The notes under the pieces were generated by a model. That model made no database searches. It saw only the letters and a list, made by a program, of their open reading frames with translations, and had not been told where the DNA came from. Position numbers and translations under genes: made by a program. Below are positions 12,209-28,485 of a stretch of 31,104 nt of DNA, one piece after another (position 1 is the stretch's first letter; each line of letters begins with the position of its first letter). The stretch spans positions 1-31,104 of the IMG/VR virus record IMGVR_UViG_3300032301_000205; one strand, given 5' to 3'. The stretch comes from a virus. Lineage: Duplodnaviria > Caudoviricetes.

Positions 12209-12613
12209 TTATTTTCGTTTAATACCACGTGGATCATCTACTACACCTTCCACAGAATCATCGTTGATCATGCGAAATTCTCTGCCATGAATCACTAGTC
12301 GGCTTCCAGCGTATGGTCTGACAAGGATAAAGTCACCCTGTTTACACCATGCACCGCTAGGAAAACGCTTGTCATCCTTATAGCAATCGGGTCCAAGCTC
12401 AACAACAAATAAGACTGTGGTCAACGTTTCTTCGTTCTGAACTGTTGAATCTGCCTTAAGAATGCCGCTCTCGTACTCTTTTTCAATATCTGGAATGGCG
12501 CATAGAATGCGGTATCCAGAAGGTTTTGGTAGTTGTCTTGCTTTTTCGTCTGCTTCTTTATTCATCACAGCTGATAAGTCGACAGCTTGCGATAAATTAA
12601 TTGGATTATTCAT
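12209..12613 (-). CDS. groES: GroES-like co-chaperonin
   Basis: PSGYRIL...SGIL...VVELGPD...GDFIL...GREFRMINDDSVEGVV follows the Cpn10 pattern. Confidence 0.8.
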   Translation of the reverse strand: MNNPINLSQAVDLSAVMNKEADEKARQLPKPSGYRILCAIPDIEKEYESGILKADSTVQNEETLTTVLFVVELGPDCYKDDKRFPSGAWCKQGDFILVRPYAGSRLVIHGREFRMINDDSVEGVVDDPRGIKRK

Positions 12614-12794
12614 CCGATCTCTCCATTCGATCTCTGAGGTCTAATACGTATCCCCTAGCGATCAGCAGACCTCGAATCTCACCGCAGGTTTTTTTGTAAT
12701 CCTCGAACTTTTCAAAGTTGCCAGTAGCGGTGGCATCCTTAAGTTGTTCGATCTTTTCGTTAAATTGAATTACCAAGACCTCTAGTTCGGTCAT
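12606..12794 (-). CDS. Small hypothetical protein
   Basis: Coupled to the portal stop, GGAGG RBS, YKKTCGEIRGL motif. Confidence 0.7.
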   Translation of the reverse strand: MTELEVLVIQFNEKIEQLKDATATGNFEKFEDYKKTCGEIRGLLIARGYVLDLRDRMERSDE

Positions 12795-16735: not shown

Positions 16736-16944
16736 TAACCGCAAGCCTTATGTTCTCTACCTTGAACCTCACGGATGATGCAGCCATTCTCCCAACGAGG
16801 AGTGGGTTTTGGGCAACGCTTCTTTACATCGGGTGGAATATCGGGATCAGAACAAGCATATACCTTTGGCTCATCCCGCATATTGACAGTGATAAATGTG
16901 ACAAGCGCTATCGTCATTAGACAGATCATTAGCCAAGATCTCAT
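16735..16944 (-). CDS. Small membrane-anchored Cys-containing protein
   Basis: N-terminal hydrophobic helix, several Cys, coupled to both neighbours. Confidence 0.55.
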   Translation of the reverse strand: MRSWLMICLMTIALVTFITVNMRDEPKVYACSDPDIPPDVKKRCPKPTPRWENGCIIREVQGREHKACG

Positions 16945-17171
16945 AGCTTGGAGATCTCCTGTACCGATTTATCGATGACCTTGAGGGAGCGGACCATATG
17001 GGGTTTTACTTGGAGTAGTCCTTTATCCTTCAAATCATGTACCAGACGGTGGATATTAGACTTACTCCGCAACTTCAATCCTGTAGCAATGTCCATGTAG
17101 CTAGGGGGAAACCCCTTCATCTTGATGTACAGGTTAATAAAATCCAACACCATCTTCTGTCTCTCAGTCAT
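16941..17171 (-). CDS. LexA-type winged-HTH DNA-binding protein (no peptidase domain)
   Basis: MTERQKMVLDFI...GFPPSYMDIA..L.LRSKSNIHRLV..L..KG matches the LexA N-terminal domain. Confidence 0.8.
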   Translation of the reverse strand: MTERQKMVLDFINLYIKMKGFPPSYMDIATGLKLRSKSNIHRLVHDLKDKGLLQVKPHMVRSLKVIDKSVQEISKL

Positions 17172-18863: not shown

Positions 18864-18937
18864 TCTGTATTCCCCTTTGGTTACTACTCGTTAACATTCT
18901 GCCGATTGTCTTCGTTTAAACATGGTAAGTAAATGAG

Positions 18938-18964
18938 GTTCGCATTACGTTCGTTAACTGTTCG
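18938..18964. promoter_or_regulatory. Triple GTTCG direct repeat with 11-bp period (putative operator)
   Basis: GTTC-N7-GTTC-N7-GTTC at 18938, 18949 and 18960, upstream of terS. Confidence 0.5.
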
Positions 18965-19327
18965 CAACACTCATCGAAATTATTTTCGAGAGCACCCTGA
19001 CATTTTGCTTTTTGATTCGTCTCTGTATGTAAGACCCTAAGATTTTTTAGTGTCGATCGTCTTACTAATGCAGTCACTTACCACTGGAGAATCATCATCG
19101 AAAATCTAACCGCAAAACGTCTTAAAAATGCTTACCTGATAGCAAGGGAGATATTCCCTACATCTACCCCTAAGCAAGCAAGGTCTCTAGCTATAGCGCT
19201 GATCAGGGCATCCACTGCACTTCGTGCTGATCCCCCGCAGAGCCTGTTTAAATCAAGACCTGACTAGCTCATGACCTGAGCCTGTGGCAATAACCCTACG
19301 GATTAGTCGGGTTTAAAAAGAAAGTGT

Positions 19328-19358
19328 TTTACATAGGTTTAAACGTTCGTGCTAGTAT
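19328..19358 (+). promoter_or_regulatory. Putative early promoter (extended -10)
   Basis: TGcTAGTAT at 19350-19358. TTTACA at 19328 gives a long 19-nt spacer that contains GTTTAAAC. Confidence 0.5.
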
Positions 19359-19364
19359 TCGTTA

Positions 19365-19780
19365 TGTAGTAGATGCAAGCATCAAAAACGGTGAGTAACC
19401 ACCGACACGTCAGAGACCAGTGCGTGGATAAAGTAAAGGGTTGATCGCTGATACCAGTCAGATCTAAAACGAGGGTAGTCAATATGAGGACTTAAAACTC
19501 TACGTCAAAGGCTAGTAGGCTCTGCACCCTGATGGGATCATGCAACCGAACGAGATGCGAGACGAGGACGCAGACCTAGTAGATCGAACAATACTAGCGA
19601 GTTGACACTGTTCCGTAGCGATACGAGTTCTTTCTGACGTGCGAACCGAGAGCGTCAATAAACAAATGCGGGTAAACGTGCGATAGCAGAGCGTTGAAAA
19701 ACAAATGGCTCTTTAACGAGATTTAATCTCATGCCTCATTGCATACCAGTGAGGCAGAGGATGCAATCTCGCATCATTAC
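19365..19780 (+). ncRNA. Candidate large structured ncRNA / 5' leader
   Basis: No ORF of 60 aa or more. Nested helices CACGTCAGA/TCTGACGTG, AACTC/GAGTT, GTCAA/TTGAC, GCTAGTA/TACTAGC, a GCGA tetraloop hairpin and 3' hairpins. Confidence 0.6.
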
Positions 19781-19795
19781 TTGGAGGTTCAAACC

Positions 19796-19984
19796 ATGAC
19801 TATCAATTCATACAACGCAGTAGGTATTGCAGAGGGATTCATTGAGGCTGAATCGGAAGACCAAGTCATTGAGGCTTGGCAGTTTCTAGTTGACAGTGGT
19901 CTTGCTTGGCAGTTGCAAGGGTTCTTTGGTCGCACTGCGACTGATCTTATTGAGCGGGGAATTCTCTCTGCTCCATCAAACTAA
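19796..19984 (+). CDS. Small acidic early protein (start MTINSY)
   Basis: GGAGG RBS, AWQFLVDSGLAWQLQGFFGRTA motif. Confidence 0.75.
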   Translation: MTINSYNAVGIAEGFIEAESEDQVIEAWQFLVDSGLAWQLQGFFGRTATDLIERGILSAPSN

Positions 19985-19994
19985 GGAGGCTTTC

Positions 19995-20656: not shown

Positions 20657-20679
20657 TCTTTTTTTCGAGGCTCAAAATC

Positions 20680-22162: not shown

Positions 22163-23149
22163 ATGCTCGGAATTCATGCAAAGCGTGGGATCGCAACAAC
22201 CCTTGAACGTGTATTCAAAAACACTGGCAATGCGTTCAATAAGCTTGAAGTACTTTGGACTGGCAAGACTGCGGGAATCATCTTTAGTCGATACGATAAC
22301 AACGTGATCGATGCTAAGTTGATCTTCCCCGCAATCGATGAGACTGTTGAGATCTCTAACAGTAAGTTCAGTAACCTCATCGGGTATGCATTGCACGAGT
22401 TAGGTCATGCTTGGTTTACTACCAACAAACCTTGGGATCTTGCTCGTGAAAAGCATGGCAAGTTTGTCAGTAATTTGATCAACGGTCTTGAAGATCCTCG
22501 CATCGAGCGTAAGGTAATCGAATCAGGCTACGCACCTAACAGTCGTGCTCTGTTCGTTGACCTGATTAATTCGGTGTTATCCAAAGACGGTTACGTTGAT
22601 CCCGCTGAGAAATGTCAGATCCCTTTCATCCTCGCTGTTGAGGGTAGACGTTTAAACGGTTATGACATTAACGTGCCAAACATCATTGATCAATCGCCTT
22701 ATGCCAAGCATTTGCACTGGGCTTTAGATCGTGCTCGTATTGCTACTAGCACCGCTGACATTGTGAAGATCGCTCTGAAGTTGTTTGATCTTTTGAAAGA
22801 GCAAGATCAGCAGAGTGAGGGGCAAGACGATGGTGATGGTGAAGAGGGTCAGCAAGGCAACGAGAAAGGCGATCAGCAAGGCGATCAGCAAGGTGACGGT
22901 GAGGGTGCTGAGGGTAACAAGCCAAGCGATCAGCAAGGCGATCAACAAGGTGACGGTGATGGTGACGAACCTAGCGACAAGCCTAGCAACAAAGGCAAGG
23001 GCAAAGGTAGTTACGATGACAAAGGTCGTGACGTTGAACCCACTAGCTTTATCGAGGATGAATTAAAAAACGAATCAAGTACTGTTGATGACAGACGTGC
23101 TCGTCCGATAGTGCTTAAACCAGTGGTACAAACTTTTGATTGGAGGTAA
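22163..23149 (+). CDS. CobT-like N-terminal protein (HExxH domain plus acidic linker)
   Basis: LHELGH...NGLEDPRIE and a D/Q/G/E-rich tail, following the AAA gene. Confidence 0.75.
   Translation: MLGIHAKRGIATTLERVFKNTGNAFNKLEVLWTGKTAGIIFSRYDNNVIDAKLIFPAIDETVEISNSKFSNLIGYALHELGHAWFTTNKPWDLAREKHGKFVSNLINGLEDPRIERKVIESGYAPNSRALFVDLINSVLSKDGYVDPAEKCQIPFILAVEGRRLNGYDINVPNIIDQSPYAKHLHWALDRARIATSTADIVKIALKLFDLLKEQDQQSEGQDDGDGEEGQQGNEKGDQQGDQQGDGEGAEGNKPSDQQGDQQGDGDGDEPSDKPSNKGKGKGSYDDKGRDVEPTSFIEDELKNESSTVDDRRARPIVLKPVVQTFDWR
22850..22990 (+). repeat. GATCAGCAAGGC-type coding repeats (DQQG linker)
   Basis: DQQGDQQGDG occurs twice, 57 bp apart, and KPSD/KPSN is repeated. Confidence 0.7.
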
Positions 23150-26777: not shown

Positions 26778-26793
26778 GTGAGCCTCCTAGTTG

Positions 26794-27124: not shown

Positions 27125-27317
27125 TTCTGCCCTTTGGAGAGGGCAGACCTAGCCCTACCTAGGTTTGCCTTAACAACTTCTGCCCAATGGTTTCAGTTGA
27201 CCCGCCAGTCTTTCGAGATACGGGCACTAGCTTCGCCACCCGATGTGCTATTTCAATCTCTTACCCTTCTAGTAACACTATCCTCTTTAATCGCTACGAT
27301 GTCGTTAGAGCCGCCAA
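27125..27317 (-). ncRNA. Candidate structured RNA between the two HNH genes
   Basis: Five stems plus a possible GAGAU/AUCUC pseudoknot. Most G-U pairs favour the minus strand. Confidence 0.45.
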
Positions 27318-27719
27318 TTAAAGAGTAAAACTATTAGACTTCTTTCTATTCTCTGATGCTTTTGTAATTCTTAAATTTGTTGCAATATGTAATCCGCTTA
27401 CTAACTTTCCATTCAATGGAATTATATGATCAACCTCATACTTTCCTTGACCGCCCTTGTTTAGTTCAAAACATCTAGCGTACACATCCTTAATCTCTTT
27501 TACATCAGCCCACTTCGGCATTGTTGCTTTAATTTTATTTCTTCTTTTTGCTCCATCATGCAATGCTTGCACATGATGTTTTTTACACTTCCTTGTTTCT
27601 TCTGTGTGATAAACACAAGCATCCCACTTGCCACGACCCCAAGCACCTTGGTTTTTGCGTTCTAATTTTCCACGCTTAGACCTTTTGTAATTGGATAAAC
27701 AATCGGGGCATATCTTCAT
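27318..27719 (-). CDS. HNH endonuclease (start MKICPDC)
   Basis: PKWAD...EVDHIIPLNGKLVSGLHIATNL......N..KSN. Confidence 0.75.
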   Translation of the reverse strand: MKICPDCLSNYKRSKRGKLERKNQGAWGRGKWDACVYHTEETRKCKKHHVQALHDGAKRRNKIKATMPKWADVKEIKDVYARCFELNKGGQGKYEVDHIIPLNGKLVSGLHIATNLRITKASENRKKSNSFTL

Positions 27720-27965
27720 AAGGATTCCATTGTAAATTTTTAACAAAGATTTGCAAGGAGTTTTGGTGCAAGCACGTACAAACACGTACGAACATATGTT
27801 TAAACTTTATTGTTGTTCCTGGAAGCGGCTGCTGCTTCTGGCTGCCAAAAAAAAAGAGAGAGTGTTTAAACTCTCTCAAAGTACTACCTCACACGGAAGG
27901 AACTACAAAGTAACCAATCTATTTTATTCGTAAAATTAAATAACGCAAGCAAATCGTAGGGGTTG

Positions 27966-27994
27966 TTGACAAGCCTTGGCTTACTGTATAATAT
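27966..27994 (+). promoter_or_regulatory. Near-consensus sigma70 promoter driving the sRNA
   Basis: TTGACA(27966)-17 nt-TAATAT(27989), with an overlapping TATAAT at 27987. Confidence 0.8.
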
Positions 27995-28000
27995 TGCCTT

Positions 28001-28077
28001 AGTTGAATGCGAATTGAGCCTCCAATCAATCAGACCAGTAGGTCGGAGAACCACCCTTAAAAAAGGTGGTTTTTTTT
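28001..28077 (+). ncRNA. Candidate trans-acting anti-RBS small RNA
   Basis: Bounded by a promoter and a terminator, no ORF, three hairpins. Seed UUGAGCCUCCAAUCAA is complementary to several phage RBSs. Confidence 0.7.
28049..28077 (+). terminator. Rho-independent terminator (possibly bidirectional with rusA)
   Basis: AACCACC...GGTGGTT followed by a T-run. Confidence 0.8.
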
Positions 28078-28435
28078 ATTCCCTTTTAGATACTTCTATC
28101 TCGCACCGAGGGTTCTCTTTATCCACACCCATCCAGTAGATATGTTTCTCTTTTACTTGTCTATCATTTTGATAGGCTACCTCTTGTAGTAGATCAAGGA
28201 TCAAACTTTCATCTAAATCAGGTCTGCGGGATGCGTACCAAATGCGAATCGTTACTACGACATCATCCTGAAAAACTTCGCTGGGAGCTATAACGCACTG
28301 CTGTTTAAACGCTTTAGCATACGCTAACGCCTTCTCGGACTTGATAAACATTGGCTTCCCACGGATGTATACCATTTTGCGTGAATTTGCTTTGCTGGCT
28401 GGCTCGCCAAATATTTTTAATAAAAGTGTTTGCAT
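28076..28435 (-). CDS. rusA: RusA-like Holliday junction resolvase
   Basis: GEPASKAN...RRPDLD...D.L....Y.NDRQV...PRCEIEV. Confidence 0.8.
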   Translation of the reverse strand: MQTLLLKIFGEPASKANSRKMVYIRGKPMFIKSEKALAYAKAFKQQCVIAPSEVFQDDVVVTIRIWYASRRPDLDESLILDLLQEVAYQNDRQVKEKHIYWMGVDKENPRCEIEVSKRE

Positions 28436-28476
28436 TTTGTAAAAAGTAGTATTAGTATGATGGTTCGCATACGAAC
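28430..28476 (+). promoter_or_regulatory. Putative promoter and inverted repeat for the recombination operon
   Basis: TTGCAT-17-TAGTAT (28430-28458), followed by GTTCG-cata-CGAAC (28463-28476). Confidence 0.5.
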
Positions 28477-28485
28477 GAGGCTCAC

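Follow-up and report, generated by a model that had tools for sequence, protein, structure and literature searches.

A predicted phage small RNA with a seed complementary to ribosome-binding sites of the phage's own early and replication genes

In phages P1 and P7, RNase P releases the antisense RNA C4 from a longer RNA; C4 carries two loops and has one antirepressor operon as its target. According to the accessible part of its description, it is ~77 nt long, folds into three stem-loops, partly occludes a ribosome-binding site (RBS) with a loop and changes its specificity together with that of its target (PMC5320573). Other phage RNAs that control development by pairing with phage mRNAs (P22 sar, lambda OOP, aQ and STnc6030 of phage BTP1) are each described as antisense to a single target gene, and the accessible part of the source mentions no short seed shared among operons (PMC12197685). 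In phage T4 the agent is a protein: RegB, helped by S1, turns off early mRNAs by cutting GGAG within an extended Shine-Dalgarno (SD) motif, and late mRNAs escape (PMC3014915, accessible part). Extended SD sequences, termed Start Associated Sequences, are also found before non-structural genes of Cluster K mycobacteriophages and Cluster EF Microbacterium phages (PMC3203893, PMC11373665, PMC7302621). In the accessible parts of these papers, they are described as conserved beyond 16S pairing, with a role stated as unknown in both 2011 and 2024 (PMC3203893, PMC11373665); one inverted copy located away from gene starts is reported for four K1 phages (PMC3203893), and no partner RNA is described in any of the three papers.

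The locus presented here encodes a predicted trans-acting small RNA (sRNA) of a tailed phage. It resembles C4 in its length, its three stem-loops, the predicted occlusion of RBSs and the joint changes of specificity in RNA and target, but it has its own promoter and terminator, a single seed, and targets in three transcription units. As with RegB, early mRNAs would be turned off via an extended SD motif while late ones escape, except that recognition would be by base pairing. The likeness to Start Associated Sequences lies in an extended SD on non-structural genes and in one inverted copy, which here is the seed; the sequence and the hosts are different, and the tag found in this study, GGAGGCTYA, does not match the 13-bp Cluster K consensus GGGATAGGAGCCC, which is accompanied by upstream ESAS repeats. 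Multi-target sRNAs with C-rich anti-SD loops are also known from bacteria, e.g. RNAIII and RsaE. A further example is 6C RNA, which uses an exposed C-rich seed to pair with SD regions in several mRNAs (PMC6486639, accessible part). These RNAs are host-encoded and unrelated in sequence, whereas here the partners are the phage's own genes and the tag tracks the seed.

The inverted Start Associated Sequence copy itself was inspected in Cluster K genomes. In Anaya (JF704106, 59870-59882) and Adephagia (JF704105, 58682-58694) it forms the 10-nt loop CUCCUAUCCC of a long GC-rich intergenic hairpin on the plus strand. The stem around it differs between these two close genomes and still folds, and no clear promoter or terminator accompanies it. 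Positions 30000-61147 of Pixie contain no inverted copy.

Searches of Rfam matched no family to the predicted sRNA, either in the window defined below or in 19 related loci; identity with C4 was rejected, as C4 gave no match at the gathering score or at E-values up to 10 in the window, and none in the 19 related loci. Literature searches, conducted largely outside subscription papers, returned no description of this RNA, and the searchable part of the PMC10690425 supplement contained no match to it. The RNA may nevertheless be listed as an unannotated motif in the supplement of PMC10690425 or of PMC5737381.

The sRNA unit and its genomic setting

The analyzed stretch of DNA (31,104 nt, IMG/VR record IMGVR_UViG_3300032301_000205), hereafter the window, is approximately half of a tailed-phage genome (the virus record is 51% complete). 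The structural and packaging genes occupy its minus strand between 18863 and 67. On the plus strand, an early operon starting at 19796 comprises the DUF7417 gene and those of an AAA ATPase, a CobT-like protein and a vWA protein; HNH and primase-helicase genes follow on the minus strand (27069-25071), and the exonuclease, erf and ssb genes lie on the plus strand from 28486. Between the latter two groups lies rusA, encoding a Holliday junction resolvase (28076..28435, minus strand, no SD), the convergent neighbour of the sRNA gene.

Several other elements of the window deserve mention. A GroES-like co-chaperonin gene (12209-12613, minus strand) is located between the portal and capsid genes. The ~930 nt between the terminase small subunit gene and the first early gene (18864-19795) contain no called gene and end in hairpins placed directly before the first RBS (GATGC-N6-GCATC, 19760-19775); similar hairpins occur in four related genomes (G001, G005, G007 and G009), and this gap is possibly a leader or antitermination RNA. 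The rusA and exonuclease genes diverge across 50 nt (28436-28485), in which the exonuclease RBS is directly preceded by an inverted repeat (GTTCG-N4-CGAAC, 28463-28476). Positions 27200..27324 (minus strand), which lie upstream of the HNH-primase genes, match the Betaproteobacteria-1 RNA (Rfam RF02932), a match also present in 13 of 19 related loci. This is a separate neighbouring element, and RF02932 was thus rejected as the identity of the sRNA; as a guess, it may mark a replication origin or be a primer RNA.

No close relative was found among cultured phages (best exonuclease match 40%). A genome-contig search gave 18 matches, the two close ones being on short MAG contigs, one of them labelled as an uncultured beta proteobacterium. 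This label and the RF02932 RNA hint at Betaproteobacteria as the host.

The initial annotation of this DNA had placed a promoter, a seed and a terminator in the intergenic region next to rusA. A sigma-70-type promoter (27966..27994, plus strand) was indeed recovered by promoter listing; its -35 box TTGACA (27966-27971) and -10 box TAATAT (27989-27994) are separated by 17 nt and match the consensus at 10 of 12 positions. An alternative -10 box, TATAAT, lies at 27987-27992 with a 15-nt spacer, and promoter-like sites as such are not above chance in this region (14 found versus a shuffle mean of 23.8). The predicted RNA, UUGAGCCUCC, of ~77-80 nt and three hairpins (28001..28077, plus strand), has its start site predicted from the -10 box. 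The presence of a promoter directly upstream suggests a primary transcript.

A weak 5' hairpin (28002..28030) formed by GUUGA (28002-28006) and UCAAU (28026-28030) surrounds the seed UUGAGCCUCCA (28014..28024), which complements an SD plus spacer; the longer stretch 28014-28029 annotated initially as the seed reads exactly as given. It is followed by a short internal hairpin GACC-AGUA-GGUC (28033..28044), the stem of which covaries while its loop is variable, and by an intrinsic terminator (28049..28077; stem 28049-28055/28065-28071, U run 28070-28077). The terminator was found by folding, a simple terminator scan having failed to list it, and its end overlaps the rusA stop codon. Positions 28001-28080 fold with z = -2.56 (4 of 200 shuffles equally stable). 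Two details of the first reading did not hold: an AUUG/CAAU stem exposing the seed is absent from the minimum-energy fold and possible in 1 of 75 homologues, and the unit, described as devoid of ORFs, contains a 17-codon ATG ORF at 28007-28060.

On the opposite strand, a terminator for rusA-strand transcripts (27856..27877, minus) lies beyond the sRNA promoter; rusA read-through to this point would therefore yield a transcript fully antisense to the sRNA. In relatives, the loop of this terminator often holds GTTTAAAC, which occurs 17 times in the window.

The RNA family in related phages

Searches with RusA and with an exonuclease alignment gathered 139 unique loci containing both genes. The unit (promoter, seed TTRAGCCTCC, hairpin, terminator) is present in 105 of them (102 detected automatically and 3 by hand), antisense and just behind rusA. 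It is absent from 18 loci, from at least three lineages, that offered enough sequence; another 16 were left out as too short (<250 nt beside rusA). In the positive loci the unit is placed on the opposite strand between the rusA stop codon and the rusA-strand terminator, with one exception (L156), in which it is ~1 kb away. The detector required [AG]GCC[TC]C[CT] and a promoter-like site, so that more divergent seeds would be missed; extra loci from a scan with a looser pattern scored low with the model and were not counted as family members.

The seed consensus of the family is U(A/G/U)AGCC(U/C)CC, in which AGCC(U/C)CC is fixed (most of these letters were required by the detector) and the flanks are variable. 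With the same reservation, as a promoter-like site was part of the detection filter, TTGACA came out as the best -35 box for 43 of the 75 unique homologues, and in 72 of the 75 a distance of 17-25 nt separates the end of the -10 box from the seed. The RNAs have a median length of 81 nt, and two hairpins follow the seed on its 3' side in 73 of 75. These 3' stems covary, with two-sided changes at 11 of 14 pairs and 97.8% of stem cells paired versus 77.8% in shuffled sequences, in an alignment that was fitted to the model and leans in its favour. The 5' hairpin has at least four enclosing pairs in 51 of 57 homologues, versus 19.6 expected with swapped 5' arms. Each 5' hairpin is weak when taken alone: in a ranking test, the RNA's own arm was among the top 3 in 7 of 64 cases and beat shuffles at the 5% level in 9 of 64. 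The seed has a median unpaired probability of 0.78 (at least 0.6 in 66 of 75 homologues), and the rusA-strand terminator lies beyond the sRNA promoter in 46 of 70 homologues, versus 4 of 70 with such a terminator on the other strand.

An ORF comparable to that of the window occurs in 15 of 73 homologues, in two frames, and the spacers of 7-12 nt break the frame, which argues against a small peptide gene. Thus, the family combines its own promoter, an intrinsic terminator and no conserved ORF with a conserved accessible seed complementary to translation initiation regions, as is usual for trans-acting sRNAs. The cis-encoded antisense type (sar, OOP) does not apply, as the RBS targets lie 0.4-8 kb from the sRNA gene and only rusA read-through would overlap the sRNA.

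Individual variants were also seen. In the sRNA of L013 (genome G001) an extra short hairpin between the promoter and the seed hairpin gives a 103-nt form. Within the 75 nt that precede the seed, 38 of 75 homologues contain the motif GAACG, often immediately ahead of the -35 box (e.g. L113, L149 and L130); it is a candidate site for a conserved LexA-type DNA-binding protein, encoded in the window at 16941-17171.

A search of seven RNA-negative records (52-89% complete) with model R1 gave no match, and no clear case emerged when a different private tag accompanied by an inverted copy was sought. One of these records (G025, L338:8268) contains, after a promoter-like site, an intergenic CTCCGGG complementary to CCCGGAG at three early RBSs, possibly an unrelated second seed or a product of chance.

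Seed complementarity to early ribosome-binding sites

Five RBS matches to the seed had been proposed in the window, and all of them read exactly as annotated. They precede the first early gene (DUF7417, ATG 19796; 19781..19792, plus strand, 12 bp with one G-U), the AAA ATPase gene (GAGGCTCAA, 20667..20675, plus, GTG start 20680), the vWA gene (TTGATTGGAGG, 23136..23146, plus), the primase-helicase gene (GGAGGCTCA, 26779..26787, minus, TTG start 26777) and the PD-(D/E)XK exonuclease gene (GAGGCTCA, 28477..28484, plus, ATG 28486). Weaker matches near 19985, 20080 and 30662 are likewise present, the first being the RBS GGAGGCT of the second early gene (19985..19991, plus, GTG 19995). The primase-helicase and ATPase sites are conserved targets in relatives and the exonuclease site is a conserved, looser one. 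The vWA match is correct in sequence but specific to the window: the portion of the seed opposite its 5' extension is variable, and the extension is not conserved.

Comparison of the seeds with the RBSs of the same phages revealed that the two change together. The exact 7-mer complement of a phage's own seed is present at the primase RBS in 53 of 57 unique cases and at the ATPase RBS in 33 of 34; at the exonuclease RBS, the cognate 7-mer was found in 36 of 75 cases and the 6-mer in 59 of 75. Phages with the seed UUAAGCCCCC carry AGGGGCTTAA at the primase and ATPase RBSs. L146, with the seed AUUGGCCUCC, has GGAGGCCAA at its primase and exonuclease RBSs, L169 (AUGAGCCUCU) has AGAGGCTCA at the primase RBS, and L174 (UAGAGCCUCC) has GGAGGCTCTA at the ATPase RBS. 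Sorted by seed class, the sites of 24 genomes form a diagonal table (GAGGCTC 28, GGGGCTT 18, GAGGCTA 17 and GAGGCTT 41).

These changes are recurrent. On an exonuclease tree of 84 rows (39 of 123 sequences were dropped as near-identical; a quick tree with SH-aLRT support only), CCUCC changed to CCCCC twice, in the clade of L113 (whose natural RNA variant is CUAAGCCCCC) and in L220. AGCC to GGCC in L146 and CCUCC to CCUCU in L169 are separate seed changes, and in all these cases the RBSs follow. The seed variants other than CCCCC nest among other seed types. Since pooled counts from related genomes are not independent, paired contrasts were used: in 12 of 14 non-overlapping pairs of nearest loci that differ in seed, the primase site of each member fits the seed of its own phage. 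At the level of clusters, the primase site matches the seed in 27 of 31, versus a mean of 8.1 and a maximum of 18 in 20,000 label shuffles. Moreover, tag and RNA are lost together: in the 18 loci without the RNA, the tag is missing from all 17 primase, all 8 ATPase and all 18 exonuclease RBSs. The covariation that the initial annotation suggested looking for in relatives is therefore present, and pairing of the sRNA with the phage's own early RBSs is strongly supported by these comparisons.

A chance complementarity of the terminator region has in its favour that any CCUCC pairs with SD sequences and that the promoter-like sites are no more frequent than expected; the conservation of the seed against variable flanks, the covariation and the joint loss speak against it. 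Together with the peptide gene considered above, this explanation is largely refuted and would be most surprising.

The same data bear on a protein-binding site, GGAGGCTYA being read by a phage DNA- or RNA-binding protein and the intergenic copy acting as an operator or as a site on the rusA read-through RNA. The gene with a LexA-type DNA-binding domain is conserved, a transcript of the rusA strand would carry the motif in sense, and a test based on G-U wobbles does not separate RNA pairing from protein binding. Yet the copy is inverted and sits in the hairpin loop of a promoter-terminator unit with covarying stems, the specificity of the protein would need to change with every seed change, and where the unit is gone the tag is gone too, although the LexA-type gene is kept (4 copies in seven RNA-negative records). 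We consider this explanation very improbable.

The distribution of the tag between gene classes was examined in 30 related records, in which genes were called and the arms labelled early or late (by family and position) with our own script; together with the window, this gave 24 RNA-positive genomes and 7 RNA-negative ones. Pooled over the 24 genomes, which are related so that the counts are not independent, 104 of 810 early RBSs carry the cognate 7-mer, compared with 5 of 764 late ones. CT follows the GRGG core at 144 of 371 early versus 22 of 170 late RBSs in the RNA-positive genomes, and at 3 of 77 early and 3 of 45 late RBSs in the RNA-negative ones. With the anti-SD core held fixed, the true 5-mer on its 5' side ranked in the top 5 of 1024 for early RBSs in 19 of 24 genomes and for late RBSs in 0 of 24, i.e. 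the early enrichment persists once SD similarity is controlled for, as the initial annotation anticipated (G006, with rank 341, shows no enrichment). RBS windows, which make up 1.3% of positions, contain 109 of the 265 cognate 7-mers.

In the window, 4 of 21 early RBSs contain GAGGCT and none of the 34 late ones does; the true 5-mer ranks 2 of 1024 for early and 385-576 for late sites. Whole-set duplex energy was rejected as a discriminator, as its early/late split (p 0.0075) is no better than that of the 16S tail (p 0.013). The initial annotation overstated the contrast with late RBSs: by duplex energy, the pairing of two late genes, with starts at 12794 and 6765 (-15.7 and -16.0), is no weaker than that of the exonuclease RBS (-15.0). 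Furthermore, 22 late RBSs in the 24 genomes carry GRGGCT.

The regulon suggested by these sites is limited. The number of tagged early genes per genome has a median of 6 (range 1-12), erf, ssb, rusA and the HNH gene are almost never tagged, and the share of targets that are first in their unit is only somewhat higher (38 of 104 versus 178 of 701). The term "master switch", used in the initial annotation, therefore overstates the reach of the RNA. Its claim that one trans-acting sRNA co-represses three transcription units is strongly supported, by conservation, covariation and joint loss, as far as pairing with RBSs in three units is concerned, with repression as the probable consequence.

Whether pairing would harm or help translation, and whose, can be judged from the position of the sites. 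The core CCUCC of the seed copies the 16S anti-SD, and host mRNAs are thus potential partners, so that the sRNA might mainly damp host translation through SD pairing; the RBSs that track the seed are, however, the phage's own. Conversely, pairing might help the tagged phage mRNAs, as local folding leaves the target sites partly paired (mean unpaired 0.35-0.55), but in most of the tagged RBSs 4-7 nt separate the GRGG core from the start codon, and a duplex over the SD and spacer leaves no room for the 30S subunit. Either effect seems improbable as the main one.

Predicted role and significance

From these comparisons we infer that the RNA is transcribed, pairs with its targets in the cell and represses them at a certain time of the infection, and we regard an early lytic shut-off, in which the predicted sRNA represses the tagged early and replication genes, as the probable role. 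Host sigma-70 polymerase would make the RNA from phage entry onward. Protected by its terminator, the RNA would build up as time passes and genome copies multiply, and thereby provide a delayed negative feedback; a constitutive-looking promoter by itself gives no timing. By the established logic of sRNAs, pairing of the seed with the SD and spacer by the start codon would block the 30S subunit, and the primase-helicase, the AAA ATPase, the exonuclease and the first early genes would be shut down, while the structural genes, with mostly AAGGAG-type sites, would escape. Read-through from rusA, being fully antisense, could neutralise the sRNA.

The same pairing and repression could instead serve immunity or dormancy, with the resident genome kept quiet and superinfecting phages of the same tag silenced, in a carrier state or by plasmid-like copy control via primase translation; the seed variants would then be immunity groups. 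Seed and targets diverged together many times, as did the specificity loop of P1/P7 C4 in the accessible part of PMC5320573; seed changes are also possible by drift via G-U intermediates. Neutralisation of the RNA by rusA read-through would offer a switch. A tyrosine recombinase gene is found in 5 of 30 relatives, all of them RNA-positive, but this gene, for a product of 264-268 aa, belongs to the middle operon and points in the same direction as its neighbours in the three cases inspected (L314:7928-8734, L323:2759-3553 and L326:5181-5975), and no integrase was found in the complete RNA-positive genomes G001, G005 and G015 or in the 90% complete G006. The 18 genome-contig matches include no integrated prophage. 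All five near-complete relatives lack CI-like and partition genes (no HTH_3, S24, ParB or serine-recombinase resolvase genes), which weighs against classical lysogenic immunity. The repressor/antirepressor context of C4-type immunity was rejected on the same grounds (no HTH_3 or S24 in 5 of 5), the conserved targets being primase, ATPase and exonuclease. Immunity thus appears unlikely as the principal role; early shut-off is favoured over it, and the two are not exclusive.

The element is real and conserved, and comparison among relatives strongly supports its pairing with early RBSs of the same phage. A broader reading, possible but rather doubtful, is that it belongs, as one family among others, to a widespread and so far undescribed class of phage regulons, in which a private RBS tag on early and replication genes is read by one sRNA. 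Such an RNA would stand in for a protein repressor, serving as timer, copy-number control and superinfection lock, with rusA antisense read-through as the off switch and seed variants as immunity groups, and the Start Associated Sequences of Cluster K might work likewise via their single inverted copy. The natural seed-RBS allele pairs provided by covariation make a reporter test possible without culturing the phage. The finding would also offer a direct test for the role of the Cluster K Start Associated Sequences (PMC3203893, PMC11373665, accessible parts); Anaya and Adephagia, in which a hairpin loop holds the inverted copy, can be grown on a laboratory host. If early shut-off by this sRNA is true, the developmental program of these phages would be run partly by one RNA that reads a tag in the phage's own RBSs, a base-pairing counterpart of T4 RegB.
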